Below are positions 13,829 to 62,151 of a stretch of DNA of 64,000 nt, piece after piece (position 1 is the first letter of the stretch; every line of letters starts with the position of its first letter). Below the pieces are notes generated by a model. The model was not told where the DNA came from, did no database searches, and saw nothing but the letters and a program-made list of their open reading frames with translations. Made by a program: the position numbers and the translations under genes. The DNA is from a virus. Lineage: Duplodnaviria > Heunggongvirae > Uroviricota > Caudoviricetes. The DNA is taken from IMG/VR virus record IMGVR_UViG_3300018065_000012, one strand, 5' to 3'.

Positions 13829-13832
13829 AACG

Positions 13833-14559: not shown

Positions 14560-14942
14560 AACAGATTGCAAAACAGCTTTTGAAAATTGCCGCTATACTC
14601 GTCAATCCCTTAAATGGAATGAGAAAACAAAAAGCAACAAAAGTTGTAAACAAATTGATGGCAGACGCATCAAAAGGGCTTTTCAGCGATTCATATTGGA
14701 GAGGCGTAAAACAAGTTTGGGAAGCGTTAGACAGAGCAGGAATCCCTTATACGATTATGAGCAACAAGTATACACAGGATAAAGTAACAGGCAACCCCAA
14801 TGCGAAAGAATGGAAGTTTGAAATAGAGTTTGCAAACGAGCGCGGACGCCTTCATAAGCTTTATGGGCGGTTGGTTGCAAGTGGCGCTGGTCCAATTGAT
14901 GATCCTCTTGAACGCTATGATATCACGGTGTATGCTTCATGA
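14556..14942 (+). CDS. small protein, ELLK-AK family (MKQIAKQLLKIAAILVNP)
   Basis: Internal ATG of ORF 14526..14942. Confidence 0.6.
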   Translation: MKQIAKQLLKIAAILVNPLNGMRKQKATKVVNKLMADASKGLFSDSYWRGVKQVWEALDRAGIPYTIMSNKYTQDKVTGNPNAKEWKFEIEFANERGRLHKLYGRLVASGAGPIDDPLERYDITVYAS

Positions 14943-43650: not shown

Positions 43651-43685
43651 TCTGCATGAAAATATAGAATCTCTTGGAGACAATT

Positions 43686-45638
43686 ATGGCAAAGAAAAAA
43701 GCATCGACAAAAAAGAAAGCAACGCGTAAACGGACGGCGAGTAAAACTAAAGACGCTGTGAGATTTGGTTTGCCTTCTCCCGGTCTTAGTAAAGGCCCAG
43801 TGGACAAGGCAAAAGCCAGAGCCGTTGCGAGAATGGAAAAGAAAGCCCGTGTTGCGAAAATTGCAACAAGCGCAATGGCTGGACGTGGACGCGAAGCCGG
43901 AATGATGATGGATACGACATCCATGTCAGGCGGCATTTGGGGCAGCTTGTCGTTGGATGCCTATCATACGAGTTACGCAAGCGGCAACACAATGTATGGT
44001 GGTGGAGTACGAGATATCCCAACGTATTTCATCATGATGAATCAGCAGAACGGCGGTGTACTGTATTGGCCCGTAAGCTTGCGCGAGAAGTATGAGTGGT
44101 ACAGATATTTTGCAAGAACAGATGCATACGTTGGCCGTGCTTTGGAATTGCTCTCCGACTTGCCGATGAGCAAGCTTTCTTTGACCGTTCCAAAGCTCAA
44201 AGACCCAAATTTGAGAGAAGAGATTCATTCTTTTTATACCTATATGTGCGAACGCATTAACTTGTTCCAAAGGCTTCAAGAAATCCTTTGGGAATACAAC
44301 ATGATTGGTAATGTGTTTGCGTTTCACGAATGGGATGAAAAACGCGACATGTGGAGCAAGATTGTTTTGCTTCCGCCAGAAGAAATCAATTGTTTCACAT
44401 ATCCATTCAGCGATAATGCGCGTATTGAATATCGTCCTGAAAAGCTAATGGAGATTATCAAGAAGTCCAGAGAAATGCCAGAGGCTCTTGAGGGCAACGA
44501 ATTCTTAAAACAGATTATGGAGCACATTCCTGAAGATGTAGTTGATATGGTCACCAATCAAGATTGTATCGTAATGGATAGCGACCCTTATGCTGGCGGA
44601 GAGGTCGGGTCCTTCACTAATCATTTTGCGCGACGCAAAAGTCCTTATATGGACTTGGGAGCATCGGTGCTGGAGCGTGTATTGGTTCCAATGCTCCAGA
44701 AAGAGAATTACCGCTATACGCAACTTGCTTTGGCAACGCGCAACATGACGCCGAAAAATAAGATCAGTGCGCCCAATTTGAATAATGACGAGATCAATGA
44801 ACTGCGCGAACAAATTGACTTGTCTTACATGGACCCCGATTATAGCGTTGTAACTAACTATGATTGGGAGTGGGAAATGATGGGGGCAGAATCGCGGCTG
44901 CTTGATTTGTCTGGCGAATATGAAAACATCGAGAATCAAGTGTTTGCTGGGCTGGGCGTAACGCGAGAACTTTTGACGGGCGAGGGAACTTACAGCGGCA
45001 ACCGGATTACAGTTGAAATTTTGAATACGGTTTTCATGCTTGTCCGCGAAACGCTTCAAGAGTACGTCGAGAAGCAATTGTTCAAACCTGTTGCCGATAA
45101 GAAGGGATGGTATTCAGAAGACAAAAATGGAATTCGGAAATATTGGTATCCGCGTTTGAGTTTCAATCGTCTCAGCATTCGGGACAATCAGGAAGTCTTT
45201 GAGAATCTGTTTCAGTTGTATCAAAAGGGTTCGTTGCCGATTGAGGTATTGTTTGAACTTTACAATTTGGACAGCGATACGATCAATGATCAGATTAAAC
45301 GGGAACTGTTTACCGTTAAAGACCCGACGTTCAATCGGACGATTGAGAACGTTAATGATGAAGTTGGACGTCAGCTTGCTGAGCGTTCTGACATTGTTGA
45401 AAAGGTTGGAAAGTATCTTGGACTCAAAGTTAAACCGCCGCAGGAAGAAGGCGCGGGTGGAATGGGTGGCGAAGCGTTTGGTGAAGAGTTTGGCGCTGGC
45501 GGAGAAGGTTCAGAAGAGGATCAAATCGTCGAAGAGACGGCTGACGCTGTTGCTGAAGAAATGCCAGCAGATTCAACCGAGGAAGAAGTCAAGGAAGTCG
45601 TTAGTGACCTTAGCTTAGCTGCGAGTGAGAAAAAATGA
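43686..45638 (+). CDS. portal protein
   Basis: 650-aa protein directly after terL; basic N-terminus, acidic C-tail. Confidence 0.6.
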   Translation: MAKKKASTKKKATRKRTASKTKDAVRFGLPSPGLSKGPVDKAKARAVARMEKKARVAKIATSAMAGRGREAGMMMDTTSMSGGIWGSLSLDAYHTSYASGNTMYGGGVRDIPTYFIMMNQQNGGVLYWPVSLREKYEWYRYFARTDAYVGRALELLSDLPMSKLSLTVPKLKDPNLREEIHSFYTYMCERINLFQRLQEILWEYNMIGNVFAFHEWDEKRDMWSKIVLLPPEEINCFTYPFSDNARIEYRPEKLMEIIKKSREMPEALEGNEFLKQIMEHIPEDVVDMVTNQDCIVMDSDPYAGGEVGSFTNHFARRKSPYMDLGASVLERVLVPMLQKENYRYTQLALATRNMTPKNKISAPNLNNDEINELREQIDLSYMDPDYSVVTNYDWEWEMMGAESRLLDLSGEYENIENQVFAGLGVTRELLTGEGTYSGNRITVEILNTVFMLVRETLQEYVEKQLFKPVADKKGWYSEDKNGIRKYWYPRLSFNRLSIRDNQEVFENLFQLYQKGSLPIEVLFELYNLDSDTINDQIKRELFTVKDPTFNRTIENVNDEVGRQLAERSDIVEKVGKYLGLKVKPPQEEGAGGMGGEAFGEEFGAGGEGSEEDQIVEETADAVAEEMPADSTEEEVKEVVSDLSLAASEKK

Positions 45639-47941
45639 ATGCTCTAATAAAGCTTGCAATGATTGAAACCAAAGCGTTCGATAAACAAGCTGTGATCGAA
45701 CAAGTCTTTGACAGATATGATATGAACAATCTTGTCATTGCGGCTGATGACGATACTATTGATTGGGATGCAAAAGTCACTGAAGAAAATCTTGATGAGT
45801 ATATTCAAAAGTTCAAAAAGCTTTTTGATTCAGGCCATCCTCAGAAGGATGAAACACTATCACCAGAGGAACAGAATCAAGAGGAAGTGGTTCAGGAATC
45901 CAAAGGTGAAAGCGTCAATGAAATTGATGAAATTAAGGCCGCAATTGAAGAGCTGAAATCAAAAGAAGACAAACAGCTTCGATTGATGGAAAACGTTGTT
46001 GATATGGTGATGACGCTTTTGCGGACAAAACCGCCGCGTAAGCGGAAGGAAAAACAAGCTTCAGCAAAAGCTATTGCTGATGAATATATTCGCATTGCAA
46101 AATCATTTGTTGCAGGCTGGAAGAAGACTAATACGAAAAACAAAGAAGGGTTGCCCGGCTGGAAAGACGAAAGCACGGGTGATGTGCGTTATCAAGAAAA
46201 TAGACCCGGAGAAATGCCAAAAGAAAAATCGCCAAAGAAAGAAGAACCAGAGGCTAAAAAACCAGAAGAGGAAAAAACAACGCCAAAGGCGTTGGACAAA
46301 CCTATTCCAAAATGGTTTGACAAGGACAACCCGCTCGATTCAAAGAACAAGGAGCAAATGAAGGGACGGGGTTTTACAGAAATCGCCGCAACCGATGAAC
46401 CAGAAACCGTAGTATCAGAAGATACAGTTGTTGTCAGTACAAAAACAGGCAAGCATTATCGTTTCGGAGATTTGCCAAAGTCGGTACAAGATCGCATGTC
46501 AAATCGCGCAAAGGAAGGCGACTTGATGCGTGCACCTTCTGCAAAAAAAGAAGCTCCTGCGGAAGAACCAAAGAAGGATAAAGAGGAAGTAAAGCAGTCG
46601 TTGCTGAACGTTTTGAAGTCAGTTCCAGAAGGCGAAGACAAAGAGAAAAACATACAAACGATAAAGGATGTTGCAGATAGACTTAACGTCGATTTGGAAA
46701 AGCCTATAGAAAAAGAACCAGAAAAGGAACAGGAAGCGGAGCTTGAACCTGAGAAGAAAGAAGTTACTCCAGAACCAAAAGAAGAGGTAAAGAAAGAAGA
46801 AGAGAAAAAGGTTGTTCCAGAAGAACCAAAATTGGAAGAGGAGAAAGAGGAAGTTGTCCCAGAAGAACCAAAGTTAGAAAAAGAAGAGGAAAAAGAACCT
46901 GAAGAAAAACCGTTGGACATAAAACAAATCGATAGAGAATTCAAAGCGCGACCAATGTCTGGATTCCTTTCGAGAATGTTTAAAGGAATTGGATATAGCG
47001 GAGATTGGGAGAAGAAAAAACGCTCAATGACCAAGAGTGATTTTGCTAAGCTTGATCAAGCGGAAACAGAAGCGGTTGATGAAGATGGAAAAGTTGATGC
47101 AAGGAAATTTTCTGAAAACGTAGCAAAAGCCCTTGGGCTTAAGAAAAAGTCGAAGGAAGCACCAAAGAAAACAATCGAAAAAGTAATGAAGAAACCTTCA
47201 CCTTCGCTAAGCAAACAGCACGAGAAGATGATGGATTCAATATCAAAGACAATGGGGAAATCTCCTGCTGAAATCGAAAAATTGCTCAAAGAAGAACTTA
47301 ATGAAATGGACATTAGCAGAACAAAGAAAAAGAGAATCTTGAGAGATATTGATTCTGTCAGGGAACTTTATCAAGGTCTGTTTAGCGATGCAACGGGCAA
47401 AGTAGCATCAGCCGCAATGGTGAGTCGTATCGCTTCTTATTTTCTTGGTCAGGACGCTGAACCAAAAGAAGAAAAGATCAGCCCAGAATTGGCGGAAAAA
47501 GTTACAAAGCGTGTGATGGAAAAACTTCAAGAAAAGAAAGGGCCGGAAGAAAAGACAGAAGCGCCAGAAGAAACTGAGGAAGAAGAAGTAGAAAAGGAAA
47601 AAGAGACTGAAGAGGAAACGCCACCATCAGAAGAACCAGCAGAAGGTGGAAGTGGCGAATTTGACGAAGACCCAGACTCTTTGGTTATTGCTTGTATCCG
47701 CGAAGCAACGCAGGGGATGCAATTGAAGCGCAAAGATAAAGACATGATGGATGATACGGGTGGCGGGTCGTACAAAAAAAGCGAACCAAAAGAAAAGCCT
47801 CCTCGCTATGATTTGAAGAAACCGTGGAGCAAGAAAAAGAAAAAGCCTTCGGATTTGGATGAAGACGTTGATAAAGACAAAGACTTGAAAGCGCAAGAAC
47901 TGGCAGAGAAAGTCGCATTGAGTTTCATGGGAGCAGAATGA
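45635..47941 (+). CDS. 768-aa Lys/Glu-rich low-complexity head-module protein with tandem repeats
   Basis: Translationally coupled to portal; repeats VVPEEPKLEEEKEE x2. Confidence 0.6.
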   Translation: MNALIKLAMIETKAFDKQAVIEQVFDRYDMNNLVIAADDDTIDWDAKVTEENLDEYIQKFKKLFDSGHPQKDETLSPEEQNQEEVVQESKGESVNEIDEIKAAIEELKSKEDKQLRLMENVVDMVMTLLRTKPPRKRKEKQASAKAIADEYIRIAKSFVAGWKKTNTKNKEGLPGWKDESTGDVRYQENRPGEMPKEKSPKKEEPEAKKPEEEKTTPKALDKPIPKWFDKDNPLDSKNKEQMKGRGFTEIAATDEPETVVSEDTVVVSTKTGKHYRFGDLPKSVQDRMSNRAKEGDLMRAPSAKKEAPAEEPKKDKEEVKQSLLNVLKSVPEGEDKEKNIQTIKDVADRLNVDLEKPIEKEPEKEQEAELEPEKKEVTPEPKEEVKKEEEKKVVPEEPKLEEEKEEVVPEEPKLEKEEEKEPEEKPLDIKQIDREFKARPMSGFLSRMFKGIGYSGDWEKKKRSMTKSDFAKLDQAETEAVDEDGKVDARKFSENVAKALGLKKKSKEAPKKTIEKVMKKPSPSLSKQHEKMMDSISKTMGKSPAEIEKLLKEELNEMDISRTKKKRILRDIDSVRELYQGLFSDATGKVASAAMVSRIASYFLGQDAEPKEEKISPELAEKVTKRVMEKLQEKKGPEEKTEAPEETEEEEVEKEKETEEETPPSEEPAEGGSGEFDEDPDSLVIACIREATQGMQLKRKDKDMMDDTGGGSYKKSEPKEKPPRYDLKKPWSKKKKKPSDLDEDVDKDKDLKAQELAEKVALSFMGAE
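46811..46897 (+). repeat. tandem ~43-nt coding repeat x2
   Basis: gttgttccagaagaaccaaaattggaagag... repeated. Confidence 0.6.
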
Positions 47942-49157: not shown

Positions 49158-49200
49158 CAATTGATAGAAAGCATTGTACATATATTCGGGAGAGCGACAG

Positions 49201-50439
49201 ATGAGAACAAGACGCGGAGCAAGCTTTTATCGCAGTGAATTGGCCCGTATGTTGGCCCAATTCTATCCCGGTGCATTGGTTGGGCCATTGACCGTAAGCA
49301 GTCCGGGCGATTCTATTGCTGGAATCGTTAAGTCGGTAAACCCTGCTGAGAACAAAGTTTATGTTGCTTGGAACGGTGGCGCGGTCAAACAGCACGACCC
49401 TGATGAAATTGCTTTGCGCGTTTTCCCCGTTGATTTGGGAGCGGGCACAAAATCTGTCGACACAATGTCTGAAGCTGCGTCAGAGCCTTCTGCGGATGAT
49501 GCGCAAGTAGAAGCTAAGAAAAAACTTGCGTCAAGAAGGGGTAGATTCGCAGTTTCTTGGGTGAAGACAAAAACAAAGAACAAGGAGGGTCTTCCGGGTT
49601 GGAAAGACAAAGACACAGGCGAAGTGCGCTATCAGAAAGAACAGCCCGGCGAAGAAAAAGCTCCAAAAAAAGAAAAACCGAAAGTAGATGTCAAAAAGGT
49701 AAAGGAACAAGTAAAAGAACAGATTGGTGGCAAGTTTGATTCTAAAGAAGGCAGAAAATCAACTGCCAAGTCTGCGATGAAAGGAATGTTTGAAAAACAC
49801 GGGATAAGTAATCCTGAGTTCAAAGCGAGCACAACAGATATCTCAACGGTTATTCGTGGAAAGGGTAAAGCTGCGGATGGTTCAGATGTCGAGATTGAAC
49901 TTGAAGTCAATAGTGGGAAAAAGAAAAAAGGCGTTGTCGGATTTGCTTACATCAAAAAGCCAGATGGCTCATTTGCTGGTTCGGAGGAGGACATCTACAA
50001 AGCTGATTTGAGCAAAGAAGGCTTTGATGAAGTTGTCAAGAAGGTAACTGCTGATTTAGACAAGCACTTGAGGGGAAAGAAATCGAGCGTTGGCCGTCGA
50101 ATGGCCATGATCAAATTCATGGGCGACGAAGACACCCATGGAATCGATGAGCCTGTTTCCGGAGGTACTGATGTAATGCGCGTTTTAGCGCGTAAGCTCA
50201 GTGTTGAAGCCTTGGAGTACTCTCAGAACCAAAAAGGCCGCAGAATGGCCGTTTATCACCGTATGCGTGGCCGTATTTATCGCCGAACGAAATTTGAAAG
50301 AGAAAACGATACCTTGGTCTGCCCGCGTTGCCGACCAGATTTGGTTGAGATGGAAAAGCAGCCATTTGTACGTGGTATGGGGATTTGGGTTTGTCCAAAA
50401 TGTGGATGGAAAATTACGACTGATAAAGTTATTGATTAA
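49201..50439 (+). CDS. hypothetical head-module protein with C-terminal CxxC...CxxC zinc ribbon; shares a ~30-aa motif with 45635..47941
   Basis: gggagag SD; CPRCRPD...CPKCGWK. Confidence 0.6.
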   Translation: MRTRRGASFYRSELARMLAQFYPGALVGPLTVSSPGDSIAGIVKSVNPAENKVYVAWNGGAVKQHDPDEIALRVFPVDLGAGTKSVDTMSEAASEPSADDAQVEAKKKLASRRGRFAVSWVKTKTKNKEGLPGWKDKDTGEVRYQKEQPGEEKAPKKEKPKVDVKKVKEQVKEQIGGKFDSKEGRKSTAKSAMKGMFEKHGISNPEFKASTTDISTVIRGKGKAADGSDVEIELEVNSGKKKKGVVGFAYIKKPDGSFAGSEEDIYKADLSKEGFDEVVKKVTADLDKHLRGKKSSVGRRMAMIKFMGDEDTHGIDEPVSGGTDVMRVLARKLSVEALEYSQNQKGRRMAVYHRMRGRIYRRTKFERENDTLVCPRCRPDLVEMEKQPFVRGMGIWVCPKCGWKITTDKVID

Positions 50440-50468
50440 GGTTCGAACCTTTTAAGGAGGTATGTGAA

Positions 50469-50738
50469 ATGGCAGCGACTGATCAGCAAAAGAAGGCATA
50501 TCAAACGGTAATCGCTGGACGCGTCCGCGAGGACGAATTGCTTGCGTTCTATGGCGGGAACTACAGTGCGTTTGCGCCGGGCATTTTCAATGCCAACCGC
50601 ACGGGCGGCAGCGTCGTACAACCAGTGCTCTACAAAGAGCACCTCAAGACGGAATATGTCGGCAAAATTCGCAGCTCTACCGGAGATGCGATTGTTGAAG
50701 CCTATGATCAAGGCAGCAACAATAACGGCACTCGGTAA
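50469..50738 (+). CDS. hypothetical GC-rich small protein
   Basis: aaggagg SD; GC ~52%. Confidence 0.55.
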   Translation: MAATDQQKKAYQTVIAGRVREDELLAFYGGNYSAFAPGIFNANRTGGSVVQPVLYKEHLKTEYVGKIRSSTGDAIVEAYDQGSNNNGTR

Positions 50739-50813
50739 GGGAAAAGGACGTTTGATGTACGTCAAGCTTTGTGCGTGAAGCAAGGCTTGGCGTACGTCAG
50801 CGTGTAGGCAAAT

Positions 50814-51011
50814 ATGGCCAATCCATATTTGAATACGCCGCCAACGAAGCTAAAGAAGCTTGTTGAAAAAGAAAAGAATGCCAAGAAAAAGAAACAGATG
50901 CGGGATGCTCTGAACGCTTGGCGTCTTGTCGTTCCCGGTCCGTTTTCAATTGGACGCAGAAAACTTGCGAAAGAACTTTTGTCAATAGCCAACCTGTTGC
51001 TTGGGGAATAA
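50814..51011 (+). CDS. small basic protein ending in the family motif (RRKLAKELLSIANLLLGE)
   Basis: C-terminal motif. Confidence 0.5.
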   Translation: MANPYLNTPPTKLKKLVEKEKNAKKKKQMRDALNAWRLVVPGPFSIGRRKLAKELLSIANLLLGE

Positions 51012-51015
51012 GATC

Positions 51016-51231
51016 ATGGCCTATTCAAAAAAATATGCAGAAGGAAACGGCAACTTGGGTCGCGATGGAGAACTTGCATTCTTCAAAGAAAATACTTCTG
51101 CTTTGCCGACAGGATTGGTGACGCCACGCAGTATTGTTGGCCCACGAACTGTATCTTTAGAAATTGAAGAGCCGGGAGACATCATTACGCGGGTGAACCC
51201 TGCGAATCCACCCGAATTGAAGAAGGCGTAG
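51016..51231 (+). CDS. hypothetical small protein
   Basis: ORF 51001..51231 trimmed. Confidence 0.45.
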   Translation: MAYSKKYAEGNGNLGRDGELAFFKENTSALPTGLVTPRSIVGPRTVSLEIEEPGDIITRVNPANPPELKKA

Positions 51232-51233
51232 TC

Positions 51234-51431
51234 ATGATCAAAAAATTACAGGGCTTGAAAACATACATCTGTGTTTTTTTCATCATCGTTTCTGCGGTGT
51301 TGAATTACCTTGGAATCATCGATCCTGTAACGCATAAGACGCTGTTGACGATTCTTGGTGGTCTTGCTTTAGCGGCAATCAAGGCAGGTCATAATCGGAT
51401 TGAAAAAAGGGCGAGGGAGTTAAAAAAATGA
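51234..51431 (+). CDS. small membrane protein (two hydrophobic segments)
   Basis: YICVFFIIVSAVLNYLGII and LLTILGGLALAAI. Confidence 0.5.
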   Translation: MIKKLQGLKTYICVFFIIVSAVLNYLGIIDPVTHKTLLTILGGLALAAIKAGHNRIEKRARELKK

Positions 51432-51868
51432 AAGAAGATGTCAAACTCGCTTGCGAAATGTTAAAGCTTGCAAAAGAGCTTCTATCAGCAAAAAATAAAG
51501 CTGGTGATTTTCCAGCTGTGAGAAAAATTATCAACAATCTTAGGTCGGACAACGGCGAACCTGCTATTGCTACAAAAACAGTTATCAAAAAAAGATATTT
51601 ACCTTTATTCAAAAAAGCAGAGCAACCTGCTGCAAAATATAAAAACATGAACCTCGGAAAGTTTGCCAAAAAATTCAATATTGATTTTGGCGAAGACGTT
51701 GATGTTAATAGTAGCGTGTTTGAAGTTTTTGCTGCTGGCGATGATGTAATGCAAAAACAAATTCTCAAAGCCGATAAAAGCTTGAAACCAGTGAACACAA
51801 TTCTTAATGCAGCGTTCGAATATCCTGAGAGAGTTTTTGTACTTGAAAAAACAAGTGAAGATTGGTAA
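51428..51868 (+). CDS. ELLK-AK family protein (MKEDVKLACEMLKLAKELLSAKNKAGD)
   Basis: Family motif variant. Confidence 0.55.
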   Translation: MKEDVKLACEMLKLAKELLSAKNKAGDFPAVRKIINNLRSDNGEPAIATKTVIKKRYLPLFKKAEQPAAKYKNMNLGKFAKKFNIDFGEDVDVNSSVFEVFAAGDDVMQKQILKADKSLKPVNTILNAAFEYPERVFVLEKTSEDW

Positions 51869-51887
51869 TCAATAAGGAGACAAGATC

Positions 51888-52250
51888 ATGGCGGTAACGA
51901 CAGTAGACAATTGGGAATATGCACAATGGGTGTATATCATCGGACGCTCGTTGCGTTTCAATACGCCATCTGGAGCTGAGGAAACGGCTGCTCAAACGTT
52001 CGTGACCAATGAACTTGCCAAACGTACATGGTTGGTTCAGGAAAACGACAAGAAAAAGGCAGTTGCGGGTCAGAACAACAACAAAGAGTATCTTGGCGAG
52101 ATGGTCGCTCTCATCGGTAGCGACATGAAGAACAAGATTCCGCTGCTTGATAGTACAGAAAAAGGTTATTGCGACACGCTATTTGCAGCGACTGGCAACC
52201 GTCGTTATGGCGATAAAGGCAACATCGGTGGCTCAGACGTCAATCCGTAA
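51888..52250 (+). CDS. hypothetical protein
   Basis: aaggag SD. Confidence 0.55.
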   Translation: MAVTTVDNWEYAQWVYIIGRSLRFNTPSGAEETAAQTFVTNELAKRTWLVQENDKKKAVAGQNNNKEYLGEMVALIGSDMKNKIPLLDSTEKGYCDTLFAATGNRRYGDKGNIGGSDVNP

Positions 52251-52262
52251 AGGAGCAATATT

Positions 52263-53228
52263 GTGAGACGCCAAGCAAGACGGTTTGATATTACGTTGCC
52301 GATTGCTCAGGTTTTGAGTGATCCTCAAAAGCAATGGGACAAGTTAACGCGTGGGCGTTTGCGCGTTGCCACAAATAGGAAGCTGTCCGTGGATTGGGAT
52401 GAGTATTCACAGGACAGATATTTGTTTGTTCATTCCACCATTGTAAGCAGCGTCAAAGTTGCTTCAAACGGTTACTACATCGATCCGCCATGCGATGAAT
52501 TAATCAACAACAATGGGAATGGTTGGGCAACGCCTGTCTTGATGTCAACGTTTCGGACTTTCATTGGTAAGAACAATTACCTTGAGCATGTGCAGATTCC
52601 CGCGTTATCAAAAGGTAAAATATTAGACGCTATTTCACGCCCTGTCGTATTTGCCGGGCGCAACGGCGACAAGGCTGATGTTGTTTACATCGACATTCTG
52701 GTCGCTGTTGATCGTAAGCATACAGATGTTATTGAACGAATTGAAAACGGGGAACTCAATGCAATGTCGATGGGTTGTTTGGCCCACTGGGTTACATGCA
52801 GTAAATGTGGGAAACAGATCGATGACAACATGAGGAATTGTAAGCATCTTGATAACGAAATGATGACCTATTTCGTTGATGATAAAGGCGTCAGGCGCAT
52901 TGTCGCTGAACTTTGCGGGCGTATGGTTAAGAACAAAAAGACGGGTAAGCTTGAAGCTGATCCGAAGTCCGTTGAGTTTATTGAAGCCAGCTGGGTCGAA
53001 AAACCAGCATTCAAAGGCGCAGTGCTCAATCACTTCGTTTCTGATGTCGACAAGCGCATCGCGAAAGTATTGCAGTTTGACCAGCTTCAGGACGCAGTGG
53101 ATGATTTGTTCAAGTTGCGCGTTGCTGACCGTTCTGGCATGATGATCATTCGCTTGGCAAGGGAAGAATTGCTGCTGCGGAGGGAACGAAATATAGTAGA
53201 TCGGCTGGCACAGGGATTTTTGAACTGA
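52263..53228 (+). CDS. prohead protease candidate (HK97 gp4 / S78-like)
   Basis: YLFVHSTIV (His motif) and ELNAMSMGC (GxSxG-like Ser motif); GTG start with aggag SD. Confidence 0.4.
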   Translation: MRRQARRFDITLPIAQVLSDPQKQWDKLTRGRLRVATNRKLSVDWDEYSQDRYLFVHSTIVSSVKVASNGYYIDPPCDELINNNGNGWATPVLMSTFRTFIGKNNYLEHVQIPALSKGKILDAISRPVVFAGRNGDKADVVYIDILVAVDRKHTDVIERIENGELNAMSMGCLAHWVTCSKCGKQIDDNMRNCKHLDNEMMTYFVDDKGVRRIVAELCGRMVKNKKTGKLEADPKSVEFIEASWVEKPAFKGAVLNHFVSDVDKRIAKVLQFDQLQDAVDDLFKLRVADRSGMMIIRLAREELLLRRERNIVDRLAQGFLN

Positions 53229-53237
53229 GGAAAGCAA

Positions 53238-53639
53238 ATGAACGAAGAACGACTTGTTCGCAGTTTGATGAGACTTTCAAAGAAGCTATTCCGAGAGAAG
53301 AATCGGGTAGCGGGCATTCTTAAAATTTCTCCAGTATTGATGACCGCTGCTAAGAATTTGAAAAAGGTTTGTGGAAAATATTCAGGGCTTGGAACTGGCG
53401 ATACTTCATCCGATGAGGCCATTGTTGATTACATCGGAAAAGAATTGCCAATAAATAAAGACAATCCATTCAAGCTTCTCGACGATGATTATAAAGGCAA
53501 GTTCACTATTGCGATTGCAACAAAAGATATTATGAAAGCATTGAAGGCAATCAATAATATTTTGGTCAAGGCCGACCTTGAGACAAGAGTTGAAAAACAA
53601 ATTGCCGAAGAAGTTTACGAAGTAGTCCATTGGTCGTAA
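53238..53639 (+). CDS. family-like protein (MNEERLVRSLMRLSKKLFRE)
   Basis: Degenerate motif. Confidence 0.5.
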   Translation: MNEERLVRSLMRLSKKLFREKNRVAGILKISPVLMTAAKNLKKVCGKYSGLGTGDTSSDEAIVDYIGKELPINKDNPFKLLDDDYKGKFTIAIATKDIMKALKAINNILVKADLETRVEKQIAEEVYEVVHWS

Positions 53640-53646
53640 GGGAAAG

Positions 53647-53940
53647 ATGATGAAAAAGCTTGCTGCGGAGTTGATCAGAATTGCCAAGCTTGTTGTTGCC
53701 AATAGTATCTTTGTGATTCATGTTACAGGAGATAAGAAAGAACCTGCGGATGAATACAAGGTAGCACTAAGCGTTCATGACAATCCAAGGCTTGGGTTTC
53801 AAATTCTGAAAAAGGGGATAAAGAAGAATCAAGCAGAAGCTTTTGCAAAGCAGATGAAAACGCCAGAAGAAAGCTTGCTCCGTTTTGAGGAGACAGGTTA
53901 CGGTCACAAACGTAAGTACAAAAAGGTAAATCGGTTTTGA
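53647..53940 (+). CDS. small protein, ELLK-AK family (MMKKLAAELIRIAKLVVANS)
   Basis: Family motif. Confidence 0.6.
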   Translation: MMKKLAAELIRIAKLVVANSIFVIHVTGDKKEPADEYKVALSVHDNPRLGFQILKKGIKKNQAEAFAKQMKTPEESLLRFEETGYGHKRKYKKVNRF

Positions 53941-53955
53941 GTTACGGGGAGCATA

Positions 53956-54702
53956 ATGCGTCGAAAAATTGCTATACCGTGGCTTGCCGACCTTGACGTT
54001 TTGTGCAAAAGAGAAGAAGACCCTTACAGCTTCGATATGGAAGTTGAAAAGATAGACACAGGAAAGCTCCCGCCCAAATATGAACGCGCACTCAAAAAGT
54101 TTTTCCACACAGACGACAAAGCAAGGATACTTCAAAAGGCTTGGAAGGGGAATAAGGTTCCTGTTTTCTGCCCTGCTTGTAATAGTGTCGAATTGGTTGA
54201 TAAAGACAAAGGCAAATCAGTTCGAAAAATTGGAAGGCGCATGCGCGGCAAAGCTGGAAACGTTCTTTTTGATATCCTGCGCAGCCCAATGATTGATGAA
54301 CCGACGAAGAAATATATGTCTGACCGCGTAAGGCGATTTGACAAAACACGTAGACAGCGGGATGATTTATCGCCGGGTCATCAAAAGCTTTTGTACAAGA
54401 AAAAGAAGTACCGCAAACCTTTGACAAAAGATGTCGATGTGGAAATCATAGAAAGCCCTCATGCGGTTTACCGGCGTAAATTGCGCGACATTGATATCAA
54501 TAGAATGGTCAATCAGATTACTGAAGAATTGGCTTGCAATCTTGACCCACAAGCCCCAGCCTGTCCCGTGCGCAGAAGGAAGCGAAAACCTAAGTTGAAG
54601 GATTTTGATGAACATATAAAAGGCCCAGCAGGAACGGCGGTTGTTGAATACGACTTGACAGAAAACCCAGCAGATGCGTTTATCATAACTCAATGGAAGT
54701 GA
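53956..54702 (+). CDS. hypothetical basic protein
   Basis: gggag SD. Confidence 0.55.
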   Translation: MRRKIAIPWLADLDVLCKREEDPYSFDMEVEKIDTGKLPPKYERALKKFFHTDDKARILQKAWKGNKVPVFCPACNSVELVDKDKGKSVRKIGRRMRGKAGNVLFDILRSPMIDEPTKKYMSDRVRRFDKTRRQRDDLSPGHQKLLYKKKKYRKPLTKDVDVEIIESPHAVYRRKLRDIDINRMVNQITEELACNLDPQAPACPVRRRKRKPKLKDFDEHIKGPAGTAVVEYDLTENPADAFIITQWK

Positions 54703-54737
54703 TTTATGAACGACAAATTTCCAAAGGGTAAATTAAA

Positions 54738-55307
54738 ATGAAGTTGGATACGTTGAAGGGCGTCGTTAAGGTTGACAAAAGAATAAACGATAAGCAACAC
54801 AAACGAATGATTGAAGTTTTGTGGCGTAATCCAGAAATCTTGAGGCGCGCATTATCGCTTCCTTTTATATGGATAAGAACAATGGAGTACGTATTTGATC
54901 CGGCCACTCAAGAAAAAATAGACCTTGTCTTCCAAGATAAGTATAATGAGTATCGAGCTGAACCAGATACTGTTTGCTTTGTTGTTGAGCTGAAGAGCGA
55001 CACGGCTGATCATGAAGTCATTGGGCAATTGAAAAAAGCCGTTCAAACGATGCAAAAAAAAGGCAAAAAAATTGGGCATTGGCATAAGACGGTTGGAATT
55101 TCTATTGCGAAGGGATATACAAATTCTGGTTTGAAGTTGTTATGGGAGGAAGGTTATCGGGCTTTTCAGTGGATTGATTCTGGGAAAGAAGTACGTTTGA
55201 AGGAATTAAGCGATCCAACTATCATACCTAAAAAACAACCAGAAACAAGCACGTTGAGCAAGTCGCTTCTTCAGCGGCTGAAGGCGGTGTCAAAAAATAC
55301 GGATTAA
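54738..55307 (+). CDS. hypothetical protein with possible PD-(D/E)xK nuclease core (IDLVF...VVELKSD)
   Basis: D...E.K spacing. Confidence 0.4.
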   Translation: MKLDTLKGVVKVDKRINDKQHKRMIEVLWRNPEILRRALSLPFIWIRTMEYVFDPATQEKIDLVFQDKYNEYRAEPDTVCFVVELKSDTADHEVIGQLKKAVQTMQKKGKKIGHWHKTVGISIAKGYTNSGLKLLWEEGYRAFQWIDSGKEVRLKELSDPTIIPKKQPETSTLSKSLLQRLKAVSKNTD

Positions 55308-55660
55308 CGTCTTGCCAAGATATTTTTGATTGCTTCGTCAAGTAGTGCAGGAATATAGATTCCAGTCAGGTAATAAATTTCAGGAATCAAACTCAAATCT
55401 CGGATAAAGTGAATCCCATTTTCCCAATTCGCAATACGCTGCCAATTGTATTTTTCAGTATCAGTTGCTGTTTGTGTAAGTTTCTTTTTCTTTTTTAGTT
55501 TCAGGAAACGAGCCAGCTCTGTACGTTTTAAGCCTTTTTTGATGCGTGCTTTTTTGAGCAATTTTCCAAATTCTTTTTTGATTGTTGATGAACGAATTTT
55601 GACATGTAACGACTCATCATTCTTCGGGCCAACGATTGACACTTTCAGTTTCTTTGACAT
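55304..55660 (-). CDS. XRE-family helix-turn-helix protein (only minus-strand gene)
   Basis: LKKARIKKGLKRTELARFL ... QRIANWENG matches HTH_XRE pattern; ggaga SD. Confidence 0.5.
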   Translation of the reverse strand: MSKKLKVSIVGPKNDESLHVKIRSSTIKKEFGKLLKKARIKKGLKRTELARFLKLKKKKKLTQTATDTEKYNWQRIANWENGIHFIRDLSLIPEIYYLTGIYIPALLDEAIKNILARR

Positions 55661-55765
55661 TTTTTGTATCTCCAAACTATCAGTGTAATTTATATGGAAA
55701 ACATATTGTTTTGTCCTTAAAACATTATACCACTGAGCGTTAAGTTTTTGTTAAAAAAACAAGAA

Positions 55766-55785
55766 CTTTTTTATATTTTATTTTA
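55766..55785 (+). promoter_or_regulatory. late-promoter-like element ACTTTTTTATATTTTATTTT in divergent intergenic region
   Basis: Upstream of acidic protein/scaffold operon. Confidence 0.45.
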
Positions 55786-55907
55786 ACATGAACGACCTTC
55801 TATGGTTGTTCTTCGACCTACCCATATGTTGATGATGTAAGCTGGCGCTCCAAGGCGTCCGTCTGTCATCGGAGCTTTACATAAGTCATTGAGAAAGGAG
55901 AGATTAA

Positions 55908-56615
55908 ATGAGCAGAAGTCTCGAAGATGAAATCCAAGCCCTTGAAAAAAGGTTGGGCACGGATGAAAGTCGTGAGGCTGAATCGCTCACGGCTGAGGAC
56001 GAGCTGAGAAAAGAAATTGCCCAGCTTGAGGATGATTTACTCGAAGATGAGATTATCGAAGATGATATTATAGAAGATGACGACATTGGCGACGAAGTAT
56101 TGGACGAAGAAGTCGCTATGGCACCGATGGCTGCTGATGCGGACGCTGAACTGGAAAAAGAGGCAGAAAAAATTGAGAGCGAGGATGAAAAAGTGATTAA
56201 AGATAGCAATGAAGAAGTAACAGACGTCAATGATTATGGAAATGAAGACCTTAACACAAAAGTTTCACGTCAACTCCTTCAACTCGCAGCAGCAATTACA
56301 AACCCCGTAGAAGATGGATTTATTGATCAGGACTTTGATGAAGTTGAAAAGCTTTTCAACGTCCAAGATGAGACAGATTCAGGCCCAGACGGGGATGTCC
56401 TTCCGGTTGTTGATAAGAACACAGATGTAGATGAATCAGACGTTGGTTACACTGCACGCCTGAAAGAAGCATCTTATCGACTTGACCGTGTTTGTAATTA
56501 CCTTGAAAAGAAGGGCGGCAAGTGGATTAAGGTTGCTTTCCGTTTGGACAAGCTGAACAACGTGATTGATGGCGAGAGAGAAAGAGTTGCTAAGCGCATT
56601 GCGTCGCGTGGCTAA
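55908..56615 (+). CDS. acidic head-assembly protein
   Basis: agagattaa SD-like; Asp/Glu-rich. Confidence 0.55.
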   Translation: MSRSLEDEIQALEKRLGTDESREAESLTAEDELRKEIAQLEDDLLEDEIIEDDIIEDDDIGDEVLDEEVAMAPMAADADAELEKEAEKIESEDEKVIKDSNEEVTDVNDYGNEDLNTKVSRQLLQLAAAITNPVEDGFIDQDFDEVEKLFNVQDETDSGPDGDVLPVVDKNTDVDESDVGYTARLKEASYRLDRVCNYLEKKGGKWIKVAFRLDKLNNVIDGERERVAKRIASRG

Positions 56616-56649: not shown

Positions 56650-57864
56650 ATGGAAAAAAGGATTCGGCTTACTGATCCACGGCACCCGCGCAATCGCGCT
56701 GCGGCTAAGGCGGAACCTTATCCGGGCATGGTTGGACAACCTGATCGTAAGTTCCAACCAGACGACAAGTACGAAAATTACGTCGAAGTTCCCGGTTGGG
56801 AAACGCAAGAGTTGCCCACGGACATTGACGACAAGCGCGACGAGATTGGTTTTCCGGTAATGAAGAAAGCTACAGTCGCGAAGGTCCGTAGCGCTGCTCA
56901 AAAAGCGGTCCGTGCTGCTATTCTATTCCTTGGCGACAAATCACCGGAAAGCGTTGTTGAAGCGCAAGCCCGTGATTTTATGCGCCTTGGGAACAAAGGG
57001 CTTGATTTGGCTCTGAGTCGTTATCAAGAAACGGCGAAGTTCTATGCTCAGAAGGAAGAGGACGACACCGTTGCGGATGACGATTTCATTGAGAAGAAAA
57101 AGGAAGAGTCAGAAGCAAAGTCTCCAGAAGAAGCAAAAAAGAACATCGAAAACAGCAATATGCCTGAAGCTTTGAAAGAACAGGCGCTCAAGAAGGTTGA
57201 TGAAGAAGGCAAAAAGAAGAAAAAAGCTCTTCAACTGATTGCTGAAGCCAATGCTCTTCTCTCGGAAGATGAAGAGGCTCAGGACGAAGAGGAAGAAGCT
57301 TGCACGAAAAAGTCAGAAGATGAAGAAGTAAAAGAGGAAGCTCAGGACGAAGAGGAAGAAGCTTGCACAAAAAAGTCAGATGATAATCAAGATGAAGAGT
57401 CTGACGAGGACAAAGATATAGGAGCAAAGAAATCAGAGGACGAAGAAGTAAAAGAAGAAGTTCAGGAAGAAGAGACTGAGAAGAAAAAGTCAGATGATGA
57501 TGACGATGATGACGACGATAAAGAAGAAGTGGTTGTGGAAGAAACTGTTGAGGCAAAGAAGAGCGGCGATGCTGAGCTGGACATTGAGATGAGCGCAGCC
57601 GATGAGGGTTTGGAAGAAAGCCCGTCCGAAGACAAGCTGCTTGCTTCGCTTTACGAGGCTCAGGAAGAGGAACCTGAGAAAAAGGAAGAGGCTCAGGAAG
57701 AAGAGAAAGAAGAAGCACAAGATGAAGAAGAGCCAGAGAAGAAAAAGAAGGCTGGAGTCAAAAAGCTTGGCGGTCAGCCCAGAGTTGCTTCTTCTGGAAA
57801 TCCTCTCGATCTTTCGAGTTTGTGGAACAGTGCGCCTGATATCAATGAACTGTGGGATAAGTAA
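56650..57864 (+). CDS. scaffolding protein candidate (acidic, tandem repeats)
   Basis: Position upstream of decoration and MCP; repeats EDEEVKEEAQDEEEEACTKKS. Confidence 0.55.
   Translation: MEKRIRLTDPRHPRNRAAAKAEPYPGMVGQPDRKFQPDDKYENYVEVPGWETQELPTDIDDKRDEIGFPVMKKATVAKVRSAAQKAVRAAILFLGDKSPESVVEAQARDFMRLGNKGLDLALSRYQETAKFYAQKEEDDTVADDDFIEKKKEESEAKSPEEAKKNIENSNMPEALKEQALKKVDEEGKKKKKALQLIAEANALLSEDEEAQDEEEEACTKKSEDEEVKEEAQDEEEEACTKKSDDNQDEESDEDKDIGAKKSEDEEVKEEVQEEETEKKKSDDDDDDDDDKEEVVVEETVEAKKSGDAELDIEMSAADEGLEESPSEDKLLASLYEAQEEEPEKKEEAQEEEKEEAQDEEEPEKKKKAGVKKLGGQPRVASSGNPLDLSSLWNSAPDINELWDK
57277..57392 (+). repeat. tandem ~63-nt coding repeat x2 (plus a degenerate third copy near 57430)
   Basis: gctcaggacgaagaggaagaagcttgcac... 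Confidence 0.6.
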
Positions 57865-58644: not shown

Positions 58645-59508
58645 ATGGCCCAGTTGGACAATCAGACCAAGCAGGAAATCATCAGTCAGTACATCAAGAC
58701 TGCCGCTGGTCGCCAACGCTTGGCCGCGTCCATGATTCAACCCCTCCGCCGTCGTAGGGATTACTCGTCTGTTGGCCGCAAGGCTTTCTATGTCGAGCAA
58801 CTTCCCGATGGTGCGCTTCCTCTTTACGACAAAGATCCAAATATCACGGCCTACGTCGTTGGAGAAGAGGGGGAGAACATTGTCGCAGTCGCCAAGCCAA
58901 AGCGCGTGATGTTCCCGCTGTTCGAGATTGCTTCGAACCCTGAAATCCAGCTGACCGAGATCAAGCAGCGTCGTTTCGATCTGATCGAGCGTTCTCTTGA
59001 CCTCGCGAAAGCGGAAATTCAGGCCGAAGAAGACCGTAAGGTTTTCGCAGTGATGAACGCACTTTCGGCAGACCCCACCAACCCCAACCCCGCTATCCCC
59101 GTCACGGGCAACCTGACGGCCAATGCGCTTGCAGATGCTTTTGCAAATATTGAGCGTACGGATATGCGCGTGGCCAACGTGTTCTTGAATGCTAAGGACT
59201 ACGCTGACCTCCGCAAGTGGGATCGGGACACCTTGGACATCGAAACTCAGGCCGTCTTGCTCAAGACTGGTCTGATGGCGACGGTCTGGGGTGCAAAACT
59301 CATCGTCAGTCGTATCGTGCCGGAAGGCACCGTTTACGTCTGTGGTGAGCCTGAGTTCTTCGGTAGAATCCCCGTCCGTACCGAACTCACCGTGCTGTCC
59401 GCTGATGATCCGAAAAACCGTCTTATTGGTTTCTCGGTGTTCGAGAACATCGGCATTGGTGCGTACAACCCGTACGCATTGCAGGTGCTCACCATCACGC
59501 GTACGTAA
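58645..59508 (+). CDS. major capsid protein candidate
   Basis: aaggag SD 7 nt upstream; GC-rich codon usage; followed by strong terminator. Confidence 0.5.
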   Translation: MAQLDNQTKQEIISQYIKTAAGRQRLAASMIQPLRRRRDYSSVGRKAFYVEQLPDGALPLYDKDPNITAYVVGEEGENIVAVAKPKRVMFPLFEIASNPEIQLTEIKQRRFDLIERSLDLAKAEIQAEEDRKVFAVMNALSADPTNPNPAIPVTGNLTANALADAFANIERTDMRVANVFLNAKDYADLRKWDRDTLDIETQAVLLKTGLMATVWGAKLIVSRIVPEGTVYVCGEPEFFGRIPVRTELTVLSADDPKNRLIGFSVFENIGIGAYNPYALQVLTITRT

Positions 59509-60138: not shown

Positions 60139-62151
60139 ATGTCGCCGCACGAGAAGCGCAAAGGTTGGCATATCAGGCAATCTTTTTCAGACGACTTTGT
60201 GGACTTGATGCACAAGTTGGAGAAAAAGTACGGCGACAAGATTTTTGCAATCCAAGGTATCGCGAACGATCACCTCGATCTGGTGCAGTTCAGCAGAAGT
60301 TTCTTTGCAAAGTCGGCCAGTAACGTAGCAGATGTAAGCGTTGACGGCAACGCCAACGTTACTGAAAAGAACATCATGCAATATAACTATGAAGCGGGAA
60401 AGGCTCTTATGAAACTTAATAGCCTTTACCTTCTTTACAAATGGGTCAAAAAATTCTGGAAAAGAGAAGTAGCAGCCGAAGCATTGGAAAAGGTCGTCAA
60501 CGGCGAGTTGTTCGTTAACGACCTTGTTCATTTCGGGATGCCGTATTGCTATGCCTTTGATCTCCGGAGCCTTCTGACTGAAGGGATGAATTTTTACAAA
60601 GGCAATATGCCGATCAATCCGCCAAAACGCAGTGACTCTTTCTTTGCCTTGCTTATCCAGACGACGGCGTATATCAGCAACCAGATTCTTGGAGCGGCTT
60701 CATATCCTGATTTTTTTGTCGTTTTGGATTGGTTCTATCGCAAGGAAATGGGCGAGGATTATTCTGACCAGTTGAATGATAAGACAATATGGAAAAGAAT
60801 CAAAAACCAATTCCAAAATCTTGTCTTCAGTTTCAACTTTCCCTTTCGCGGAAATCAAAGTGCCTTCACCAATTTGTCGGTGATGGACGAGGGTTTTTTG
60901 CAGCAACTTTTTGGCAAAGGAGCTTACACCTATCCAGATGGTACTGATCCCAAACTGGAAAGTGTTTTGAAATTATCGAAAAAGTTCTTTGAGTACTATG
61001 CTGAAATCAACGGCAAGGAAGGAATCTTTACATTCCCCGTTATGACATTGGCAATCAGTATTGACAAAGATACTGGAAAATATATTGATCCAGAATTTGT
61101 AGATTGGGCGGCAAAAGCAAATTGCAGTAAAGCGATGGCAAACATTTTCCAGAGTGTTCCAAATTCGTTTTCAAGCTGTTGCCGGTTAAAAAGTGAATTT
61201 CAGATTGACGAAGTGGGTGCAGATGGTTATCAAAACAGTTTTGGCGTTGGTGGTCTTTCGATTGGAAGTCATCGCGTTGCAGGTTTGAATCTTCCGCGTA
61301 TTGCGATTTTGGAGAAAGAGAACCCAAATATCCTTGAAGAAGACATTGAGTTGTTGCATAAAATCCTTTTGGCGCATCGGCGTTTAATCCAGCATCATAT
61401 TGACAACAAAGCGCTCCCGCTATATGAGACGGGCTGGATTCATTTGAAAAAGCAGTACAGTACGATTGGGTTTGTTGGCGGATATGAATATGTTGTCAAC
61501 AAGGGCTTGAATATTAAGTCTGATGAAGGTATAAAAGCCTTGACTGATGTCTTGACTTTTGTTGAATCGAAAATTGGCCATTGGCAACGGGAAGAGAAAG
61601 AGGACGGGAACATTTACAATATTGAGCAAATCCCTGCTGAGTCCATGGCGGTGAGGCTTGCGAAAATTGATCATATTTCTGGGCACAACCCGAAAAATTT
61701 CAAGCTTTACTCCAACCAGTATATTCCATTGATTGAAGATGCGAGTATTTACGACAGGTTTCGGATTCAGGGTAATATCGATGCGTTGACTTCCGGCGGT
61801 GCGATTTTGCACTTGAATATTGACGATGAAAAACCGCTGAGCGCAAAGCAATTTCGCAAAGTAATCGAACATGCGAAAAATTCTGGCACTGTTTATTTTG
61901 CTGTGAATTATGCTTACAGTGAATGCGAGAAAAAACACTATGTTGTCGGAAAGCGTAAGAAATGCCCCGTTTGTAAAGCAAAGATTACTCAGCAATATAC
62001 CCGTGTTGTTGGTTTTGTGACGCCGGTGAGAAGCTGGAATTCCGTTCGGCGTGATTATGAATATGAAAATCGAGTGTTTTACTCGAATGAAAACGCAGTC
62101 AATGGAACGTCAAAGAAGAAAATCCTCAAACCTCAACCAGCGAGTGTATGA
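60139..62151 (+). CDS. nrdD: anaerobic ribonucleoside-triphosphate reductase, class III
   Basis: aaggagga SD; C-terminal CPVCKAK zinc ribbon and glycyl-radical-like TRVVGFV. Confidence 0.8.
   Translation: MSPHEKRKGWHIRQSFSDDFVDLMHKLEKKYGDKIFAIQGIANDHLDLVQFSRSFFAKSASNVADVSVDGNANVTEKNIMQYNYEAGKALMKLNSLYLLYKWVKKFWKREVAAEALEKVVNGELFVNDLVHFGMPYCYAFDLRSLLTEGMNFYKGNMPINPPKRSDSFFALLIQTTAYISNQILGAASYPDFFVVLDWFYRKEMGEDYSDQLNDKTIWKRIKNQFQNLVFSFNFPFRGNQSAFTNLSVMDEGFLQQLFGKGAYTYPDGTDPKLESVLKLSKKFFEYYAEINGKEGIFTFPVMTLAISIDKDTGKYIDPEFVDWAAKANCSKAMANIFQSVPNSFSSCCRLKSEFQIDEVGADGYQNSFGVGGLSIGSHRVAGLNLPRIAILEKENPNILEEDIELLHKILLAHRRLIQHHIDNKALPLYETGWIHLKKQYSTIGFVGGYEYVVNKGLNIKSDEGIKALTDVLTFVESKIGHWQREEKEDGNIYNIEQIPAESMAVRLAKIDHISGHNPKNFKLYSNQYIPLIEDASIYDRFRIQGNIDALTSGGAILHLNIDDEKPLSAKQFRKVIEHAKNSGTVYFAVNYAYSECEKKHYVVGKRKKCPVCKAKITQQYTRVVGFVTPVRSWNSVRRDYEYENRVFYSNENAVNGTSKKKILKPQPASV

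Follow-up and report, generated by a model that had tools for sequence, protein, structure and literature searches.

A short helical motif of small basic proteins encoded among the head genes of an uncultivated huge phage, a candidate capsid-docking peptide

Why would small proteins with otherwise unrelated sequences carry the same short peptide, and why would some of their genes lie beside a phage prohead protease gene? The question is raised by the 64,000-nucleotide stretch of the virus record IMGVR_UViG_3300018065_000012 analyzed here (the window), in which four small open reading frames (ORFs) between positions 50814 and 53940 flank a prohead protease gene and share a 19-residue motif with a large cluster of small ORFs at 94..14942. 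The initial annotation took the location of the four ORFs among structural genes as support for a virion-associated role of the family. Our analysis upholds a link with head morphogenesis and extends it beyond the gene order of one genome by comparative, scaffold, and protease evidence, but the four ORFs themselves appear as fast-turnover accessory genes and not as core head genes.

A shared motif in four ORFs beside the protease gene and in a distant cluster

The four ORFs are the following.

50814..51011, + strand: very basic ORF of 65 amino acids (aa), isoelectric point (pI) 10.5, C-terminal motif at 50958..51008 (RRKLAKELLSIANLLLGE, followed by the stop codon)
51428..51868, + strand: basic ORFan of 146 aa, N-terminal motif at 51440..51487 (MKEDVKLACEMLKLAKELL)
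53238..53639, + strand: basic ORF of 133 aa, divergent N-terminal motif at 53241..53297 (MNEERLVRSLMRLSKKLF)
53647..53940, + strand: basic ORF of 97 aa, pI 10.0, canonical N-terminal motif at 53650..53700 (MMKKLAAELIRIAKLVV)

Of these four proteins (65 to 146 aa, pI 9.2 to 10.5), three carry the motif at the N terminus and one at the C terminus. Their translations are identical to the sequences first reported to bear the motif, and the independent gene calls of public assemblies, compared on L013 (L013 coordinate equals window coordinate minus 43646), give the same four ORFs with the same boundaries and lengths of 65, 146, 133, and 97 aa. A motif search with a hidden Markov model (HMM), which the initial annotation had proposed as a check, recovered three of them. 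The HMM was trained only on the 22 copies at positions 1..15000, so the head-block copies are independent of it; the scores were 22.4 bits for 53650..53700, which falls within the range of the training copies, 14.6 bits for 50958..51008, and 11.1 bits for 51440..51487, and the top minus-strand match reached 3.1 bits. A loose regular expression for the motif matched 28 times in + strand reading frames and never on the − strand.

The copy in 53238..53639, originally called degenerate, has a local HMM score of about 0 bits. When the canonical register (Met, four residues, and the core) was imposed, a position-specific scoring matrix (PSSM) ranked it 40th among 32,600 + strand windows, and of 34,040 antisense windows, a single one, itself the antisense of a real copy, scored as high or higher. 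An ungapped search of its 20-mer against 84,852 six-frame 20-mers of the window and of the closest relative, L104, returned L104 10974 (MDKERLAKRLVRLAKELSSA) as the top nonself match, with 9 of 20 residues identical and a score of 43 versus 32 for the next. L104 10974 is a motif ORF in the equivalent slot just downstream of the protease gene, and 10 of the 13 top matches (self included) are in-register termini of bona fide members. On the basis of the forced-register rank, the same-slot match in L104, and the in-register family termini, we take 53238..53639 to be a true divergent member of the family.

The motif has the consensus M-[DE]-N-K-K-[VIL]-A-x-E-L-[LV]-K-[ILV]-A-K-x-L-[VLT]-[ASG]. Codons at its conserved residues vary synonymously, with four Ala, both Glu, and five Leu codons in use; therefore, the motif is real and under selection at the peptide level. 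Among 146 distinct high-scoring segments, a set that includes some register-shifted duplicates, about 75% immediately follow the initiator Met, and another 8% or so are located no more than 12 residues from the stop. Several proteins hold two or three copies, and the sequences flanking the motif are unrelated, which, as judged from these sequences, identifies the motif as a portable tag and not a domain. Most copies contain A-x-E (Ala in about 77% and Glu in about 70% of a partly register-shifted set). The tagged proteins are basic: 22 of 25 members have a pI above 9, and their median pI is 9.8, compared with 7.2 for 54 other ORFs (Fisher P = 0.001).

The motif is predicted to form a self-contained amphipathic α-helix of about 16 residues. 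An AlphaFold model of moderate confidence for the two-motif protein 8020..8319 has helices at residues 3 to 18 and 79 to 98 with a disordered linker between them; a disordered stretch at residues 21 to 52 comes after the first helix, and an A/S/G-rich position follows the motif helix. With a predicted template modeling score of 0.44, the relative packing of the two helices is not readable from this model. On a helical wheel, the hydrophobic residues occupy one face, and because the two conserved alanines lie at its center, this face suggests packing on another helix and not insertion into lipid.

Database searches returned few proteins with the motif. An exhaustive HMMER search of 1.84 billion representative proteins yielded 59 at an E value of ≤1e-3, mostly of 44 to 290 aa and nearly all matching at a terminus, and a 45-aa motif profile run through a word index found 4 proteins only. 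A tblastn search of the consensus peptide against 50,697 phage records and a blastn search with 50000..56000 gave no match. For 51428..51868, whose start overlaps the upstream gene by 4 nucleotides (nt), no homologue but itself was found among 5.8 billion proteins, and its sole match in PHROGs is weak (phrog_20601, "head protein"; E = 0.008). Apart from that match, no Pfam or PHROGs family covers the motif or the four ORFs. No published paper with the sequence strings of the motif was found, and concept-level literature searches yielded work on T4, P1, and SPN3US only. As far as we have searched, a shared capsid-targeting or docking peptide of this sequence is undescribed in Pfam, PHROG, and the literature.

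Most motif copies of the window lie in the large cluster, the last gene of which is followed by an enzyme gene.

94..14942, + strand: main family cluster of about 22 motif-bearing small ORFs, found by regular expression and HMM
14939..16441, + strand: PolyA_pol/CCA-type nucleotidyltransferase with an HD domain and a degenerate N-terminal motif (MNVSSELQKIATLLV)

In the cluster, the motif mostly stands right after the Met; 8020..8319 and 13833..14390 carry it at the C terminus, and two copies are present in 735..1214, 2817..3353, 7434..7997, and 8020..8319. One further member lies just upstream of the window start (L006 7988; MEKIAREILEIANRIAASG), and the 334-bp intergenic region that precedes it (L006 7654..7987) holds the direct repeats AATATTCGAGAATGG and TTTTTTTGGCAC. 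Within the window, motif copies are limited to 94..14942 and the head block; none was found by HMM or PSSM at 15 to 41 kb or at 59.5 to 64 kb. The relative L019 has a syntenic cluster of 24 copies that likewise ends at the PolyA_pol gene. The window's nucleotidyltransferase (Pfam PolyA_pol, E = 9.5e-20, domain from residue 41) scores 10.3 bits by PSSM and 9.7 bits by HMM at its N terminus, and its L019 orthologue carries a clear N-terminal motif (21.8 bits). No tRNA genes were found in the window.

Several other features of the cluster deserve mention. A subfamily made up of 735..1214, 8020..8319, P0001, P0007, P0019, and P0038 has a fixed architecture, in the order motif, G-P-G-x-P-D-G-T-G-P-x-G, often an Arg run, Cys, an acidic linker, and a second motif. 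Among the motif genes lie a phosphatidylserine decarboxylase gene (3598..4677; Pfam, E = 5.6e-40) and a gene for a half-ferritin protein (8279..8671) that passes the Rubrerythrin cutoff. EncFtn-like scores of 21.4 and 26.3 bits fall just short of the cutoff of 27; the L019 homologue (10319..10825) bears the motif itself, in its C-terminal half. The motif-like N termini of the phosphatidylserine decarboxylase and of 9092..10114 were rejected on HMM scoring.

Motif genes in the head block of the window and of its relatives

The source phage is uncultivated and about 338 kb in size, with identical window proteins on public contigs of up to 338 kb; nearly all genes of the window are on the + strand. 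The initial annotation had placed the four ORFs among portal, protease, and scaffold genes, and this location is correct.

41303..43117: large terminase, recognized through PHROGs
43674..45638, + strand: portal protein (phrog_16240, E = 3e-26)
45635..47941, + strand: Lys/Glu-rich protein of 768 aa after the portal gene, with a motif-like helix at 46061..46117 (SAKAIADEYIRIAKSFVAG)
52263..53228, + strand: prohead maturation protease of 321 aa (PHROGs), of the T4 gp21/herpesvirus assemblin fold
55908..56615, + strand: acidic scaffold-like protein with an internal motif copy at 56250..56306 (LNTKVSRQLLQLAAAITNP)
56650..57864, + strand: main scaffold-like protein, with a conserved helix at the position of 56881..56937
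58645..59508, + strand: probable major capsid protein of 287 aa (public gene call; judged by synteny and size only)

The gaps between genes of this block range from −4 to 75 nt, no terminator-like + strand site was found between 45000 and 54842, and cotranscription of the four ORFs with structural genes is plausible from this layout. The closest terminases are those of LR745208.1 (a 485-kb uncultured phage) and Tunturi_5 (a 308-kb Tunturiibacter phage), at 28 to 32% identity.

The protease has an assemblin-like fold, and the genome encodes a prohead protease of the gp21 family; sequence searches and Foldseek for fold kinship of 52263..53228 found nothing. More than 500 homologues are present on contigs of up to 548 kb, and in an alignment of 57 of them, H109 and S169 are invariant and H57 is nearly invariant, making these the candidate catalytic residues. 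All characterized phage proteases of the gp21 fold (T4, phiKZ, 201phi2-1, and SPN3US) cut after Glu, at sites of the form A/S/G/L/I-x-E in general and A-x-E in SPN3US (PMC5694885). A-x-E, the cleavage signature of this protease family, is found inside the motif. The C-terminal helix of the protease resembles the motif by eye; it is out of register and was rejected as a copy. In L004, the protease (9947..12235) is 762 aa long, with an insert of about 420 aa immediately behind the conserved S-M-G-C, and another homologue, P0094, has the Pfam domains Hom_end_hint and Intein_splicing; together, the insert and these domains suggest that the probable catalytic-serine motif of the protease is interrupted by an intein.

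Head regions were recovered from ten related lineages. Motif ORFs are present in the head blocks of L104 (72% protease identity to the window), L024 (66%), L004/L003 (58%), L023 (58%), L022 (55%), L002/L001 (54%), L021 (50%), L016, and L017, and there are none in that of L005, the most distant lineage (37%). Each head block except that of L005 holds one to eight motif ORFs, at most about 8 kb from the protease gene in L104, L024, L004, L023, L022, L002, L021, L016, and L017. They occupy slots upstream or just downstream of the protease gene, between a conserved gene for a 164- to 170-aa protein and the capsid gene, or beyond the latter. Like that of L005, the head regions of LR745208.1 and Tunturi_5 lack the motif.

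The core head genes are conserved across the lineages, including a 284- to 287-aa gene behind the scaffold-like genes in all relatives (the capsid candidate), but the motif ORFs are not. No BLAST match of the window's four ORFs was found in L104, despite a capsid protein that is 97.6% identical, and the equivalent slots in L104 are filled by other tagged genes. The protein 53647..53940 is weakly similar to a same-slot ORF of L004 (12572..12805; E = 5e-4). A homologue of window 13833..14390, from the large cluster, lies directly upstream of the protease gene in L104 (near-identical N terminus, judged by eye and unaligned), and a homologue of 51888..52250 sits in the large L019 cluster. The C-terminal subtype of 50814..51011, LLS[ILV]A..L[LIV][GT]E, also ends L002 10942..11112 and is placed 24 residues before the stop in L022 7448..7657. 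Judged from these gene orders, genes move between head slots and the large cluster, and the association with head genes is conserved while gene content turns over.

The motif is also found inside scaffold-like proteins. It is inserted in the acidic scaffold-like proteins of the window (residue 115; PSSM, 11 to 13.7 bits), L024 (residue 104), and L022 (11060; residue 107), and none of 116,194 antisense windows scores as high as these three copies (11 to 14.5 bits). At the equivalent position, L104 holds a weaker one (9.7 bits). The 56-aa ORF L002 10942..11112 and the L024 scaffold-like protein have a common junction, SASEK plus motif. In the main scaffold-like protein, a helix with the consensus S[IV]RxAAxKAV[RK]LAVLLLG[DE] is conserved in relatives and is weakly motif-like: it is the top-scoring segment in 4 of 8 orthologues (L021 to L024; 3.6 to 5.4 bits, empirical P of 1e-5 to 3e-5) and the second-best segment in L004 (0.0 bits), and the window's own helix at 56881..56937 is not among the top three segments of its protein. 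The helix in the Lys/Glu-rich protein 45635..47941 scores 13.1 bits by PSSM and 8.1 bits by HMM. Right behind it stands a 35-aa module (residues 158 to 192) that recurs in 49174..50439 (residues 125 to 159; 69% identical, E = 3e-13), with the shared sequence W-K-T-x-T-K-N-K-E-G-L-P-G-W-K-D-x-x-T-G-x-V-R-Y-Q.

A possible docking helix and its alternatives

The reading that we prefer, although we hold it at slightly less than an even chance, is that the motif serves as a docking helix by which variable cargo is directed to the scaffold-filled prohead, with A-x-E as a possible release site. As a portable address peptide, the helix would bring rapidly changing cargo (small proteins, most of them basic, as well as at least one enzyme) to the scaffold-filled prohead, where it would dock through the same partner as the motif-like helices of the scaffold proteins. 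The neighboring gp21-type prohead protease could then cut at A-x-E, which would split the helix and release the cargo in the maturing head, as with the capsid targeting sequence (CTS) of T4. The four ORFs would be cargo genes in exchangeable slots beside the protease gene. This reading is supported by the motif itself, the predicted helix, the fold of the protease, the conserved link of motif ORFs with the head block, the copies inside scaffold-like proteins, and the basic composition of the family; from these, we infer docking at the prohead, cleavage, packaging, and ejection.

Several observations weigh against this proposal. In roughly 15 to 30% of copies, R, K, Q, S, or D stands in place of the Glu of A-x-E, a variation not expected of an obligatory P1 residue; conservation extends about 10 residues beyond the putative cut; and the motif also occurs at C termini and internally, unlike the T4 CTS. 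Most copies (about 22) belong to genes that lie about 35 kb away from the head genes and have auxiliary neighbors, such as the genes for the phosphatidylserine decarboxylase, the ferritin-like protein, and the nucleotidyltransferase. The scaffold-embedded copies are absent from the L002, L004, L021, and L023 orthologues. No conserved [ASG]-x-E emerged from a column-wise search of the scaffold and portal alignments (an ASE that precedes the scaffold motif insertion was seen by inspection of the alignment and not by the column test), and the capsid protein has no obvious propeptide.

The T4 CTS is MKTYQEFIAE, and to our knowledge it has no alignable similarity to the motif beyond I-A-E. The likeness is one of principle: as in the T4 proteins IPI, IPII, IPIII, and Alt, a short terminal peptide is common to otherwise unrelated proteins, a prohead protease of the gp21 fold is encoded, the tag has x-x-E at about residue 9 or 10, and the cargo genes are hypervariable among close relatives. 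In T4, a short conserved N-terminal peptide is the sole common feature of the highly diverse small internal proteins, which are lysine rich (PMC3012670), and the basic cargo of the phage studied here resembles them. In contrast to the T4 CTS, however, the tag here is about twice as long and stays conserved for some 10 residues past the putative cut; copies are also found at C termini, internally, in tandem, and in scaffold-like proteins; and about 25 or more genes per genome are tagged here, versus a handful, with the system known from sequence alone.

Among giant phages, phiKZ gp93 and the SPN3US paralogues gp53 and gp54 (MANFVKSKLARESVE) offer a second comparison, in that diverged paralogues keep an identical N terminus whose A-x-E or S-x-E site is cleaved by a gp21-type protease (PMC5694885). 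The common N terminus of gp53 and gp54 (MANFVKSKLARE...) contains a site of the A/S/G/L/I-x-E type (PMC5694885), and the local K-L-A-x-E pattern is the same as here. The propeptides of those phages, in contrast, are mostly longer than 100 residues, are common to few proteins, and belong to another phage clade, whereas here the helix after the Glu is the best-conserved part. Terminal segments also act as packaging signals in P1 and HK97: the N-terminal signal of P1 DarB, about 30 residues long, suffices to direct proteins into the capsid (PMC9024508), and the C-terminal tail of the HK97 protease, of about 30 residues or fewer, is described as sufficient for capsid targeting in the account given there (PMC9024508, citing Duda et al. 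2013). Each of these is present in a single protein, unlike a genome-wide motif. Encapsulins and bacterial microcompartments (BMCs) provide a third parallel, since short peptides at either end plus a linker address unrelated cargo to a shell; the BMC peptides, about 18 residues long, form amphipathic helices, the shells of encapsulins show the HK97 fold, and a ferritin-like protein is tagged in L019. The consensus sequences are unlike, and the candidate shell here is a phage capsid; no encapsulin or BMC shell gene was found among about 40 window proteins scanned against Pfam, which is not a full survey of the window or genome.

A bolder version of the proposal, which we regard as possible but doubtful, is that a clade of huge phages loads at least 25 rapidly exchanged proteins into the capsid by a universal helix that is related to a scaffold helix and contains a protease release site. 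The cargo would include enzymes (the CCA/poly(A)-type nucleotidyltransferase and an encapsulated-ferritin-like protein), and bivalent proteins tagged at both the N and C termini would knit it into an internal body, akin to encapsulin cargo loading combined with an expanded T4 CTS system.

The distribution of the copies is open to other explanations. The helix may be a capsid-independent docking or oligomerization module that gathers small basic proteins or binds a hub (for example, a condensate, a network that coats the nucleoid, or a replication or transcription factory associated with DNA or RNA), with the two-motif proteins as cross-linkers. Two or three copies at the N and C termini of many members would suit such bridging, the central alanines suggest tight helix-helix packing, the family is basic, the nucleotidyltransferase is tagged, and most copies lie beside auxiliary or metabolic genes. 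We consider this module rather unlikely, however, since it leaves unexplained both the recurrence of motif ORFs inside the head-gene block across lineages and the motif in scaffold-like proteins, and no hub candidate was identified. It is less likely still that the motif genes form an ordinary, fast-diverging paralogous family in which the helix is the best-kept structural element (for example, the first helix of a bundle) without any addressing role, and in which the sites near the protease gene are merely permissive for insertion. Some members do share C-terminal domains (473..754 and 5924..6448, for example), and the head-module slots also house untagged accessory genes (53956, 54738, and the minus-strand helix-turn-helix [HTH] gene). 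Yet paralogy sits poorly with a helix that is found at either terminus, internally, and in several copies per protein; with unrelated tagged partners (ferritin-like, PolyA_pol, DUF5661, Zn-ribbon, and scaffold-like proteins); with the disordered linker behind the helix in the model; and with a tag that is nearly invariant while the remainder has no detectable similarity.

A membrane-targeting amphipathic helix of the MinD/FtsA type, directed to the cell membrane or a lipid compartment, would account for a strongly amphipathic, lysine-flanked segment at either terminus, and the phosphatidylserine decarboxylase and the hydrophobic ORF 51234..51431 are encoded among the motif genes. We judge it quite improbable: the center of the hydrophobic face holds conserved Ala and not bulky residues, the Glu-Lys pattern of the polar face is conserved, which points to specific protein recognition, the scaffold-like proteins with motif copies are highly acidic, and the phosphatidylserine decarboxylase's own N terminus does not fit the motif. 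Hardly any weight can be given to a nucleic-acid element (a translation-initiation region, promoter, or recombination box) or to a leader of the bacteriocin type or of ribosomally synthesized and posttranslationally modified peptides (RiPPs), even though in most genes the initiation codon opens the motif, the codons of which are A rich, and a conserved leader with a variable remainder in a gene array resembles prochlorosin-type precursors. The synonymous variation of codons at conserved residues largely refutes the former, and together with the C-terminal and internal copies, it rules out a DNA-level repeat or initiation-region element. For a RiPP leader, the remainders (50 to 250 aa) are basic and not rich in Cys, Ser, or Thr, and the spacing is unlike that of the double-glycine leader consensus, E-L-x-x-I-x-G-G.

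If the preferred reading, prohead docking of tagged cargo, is true, then the motif would mark, by sequence alone, the set of proteins injected with the DNA by uncultivated phages of about 340 kb. This set would be a catalogue of candidate first-strike antidefense and takeover factors, and its turnover would be rapid, since phages with 97.6% identity in their capsid proteins have no cargo genes in common. The T4 CTS principle would extend to a distant lineage, with tags at either terminus, in several copies per protein, and in the scaffold. Phage and encapsulin cargo loading would be tied together, and a 19-residue tag for packaging foreign proteins would be supplied.

Neighboring genes, promoter-like elements, and a motif outlier

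Other genes of the head region lie between or after those described above.

51234..51431: hydrophobic ORF of 65 aa in the head module, probably with two membrane-spanning segments; conserved in L004 and L104
54738..55307: weakly PD-(D/E)XK-like ORF between the protease and scaffold genes; conserved in L004 and L104
55304..55675, − strand: HTH-like gene, the sole minus-strand gene of the region, inserted between the protease and scaffold genes
60139..62151 and downstream: anaerobic ribonucleotide reductase NrdD and a radical-SAM activase-like gene, directly after the capsid gene, with no tail genes there

A scan for sigma70-type promoters was uninformative on timing. The exact sequence TTGTATAAT, which is extended −10-like, occurs on the + strand only at 16833, 23315, 31701, and 34434, with at least three of these sites intergenic. 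An intergenic element, ATAAT-TTTTTTATATT, is found upstream of structural-gene blocks at 39078, 49144, 55767, 59594, and 62766 and at L006 7253, where the gene that follows it lies about 0.7 kb upstream of the family's first member; a similar element is present in L004. It may represent a phage-specific promoter class and was not used as evidence here.

Genome contigs scanned with the motif gave mostly chance matches within unrelated proteins, and one Lentisphaerae metagenome-assembled genome, CAIQLG01, stands out. Four of its contigs (L077, L085, L087, and L095) each have an ORF starting with TERKLIARELVKIAKNLINETKE, right behind a stop codon and a strong Shine-Dalgarno sequence and without a canonical start codon. 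On three contigs, the ORF runs for about 125 aa before its stop, and on the fourth it is truncated by the end of the locus; the element is multicopy.

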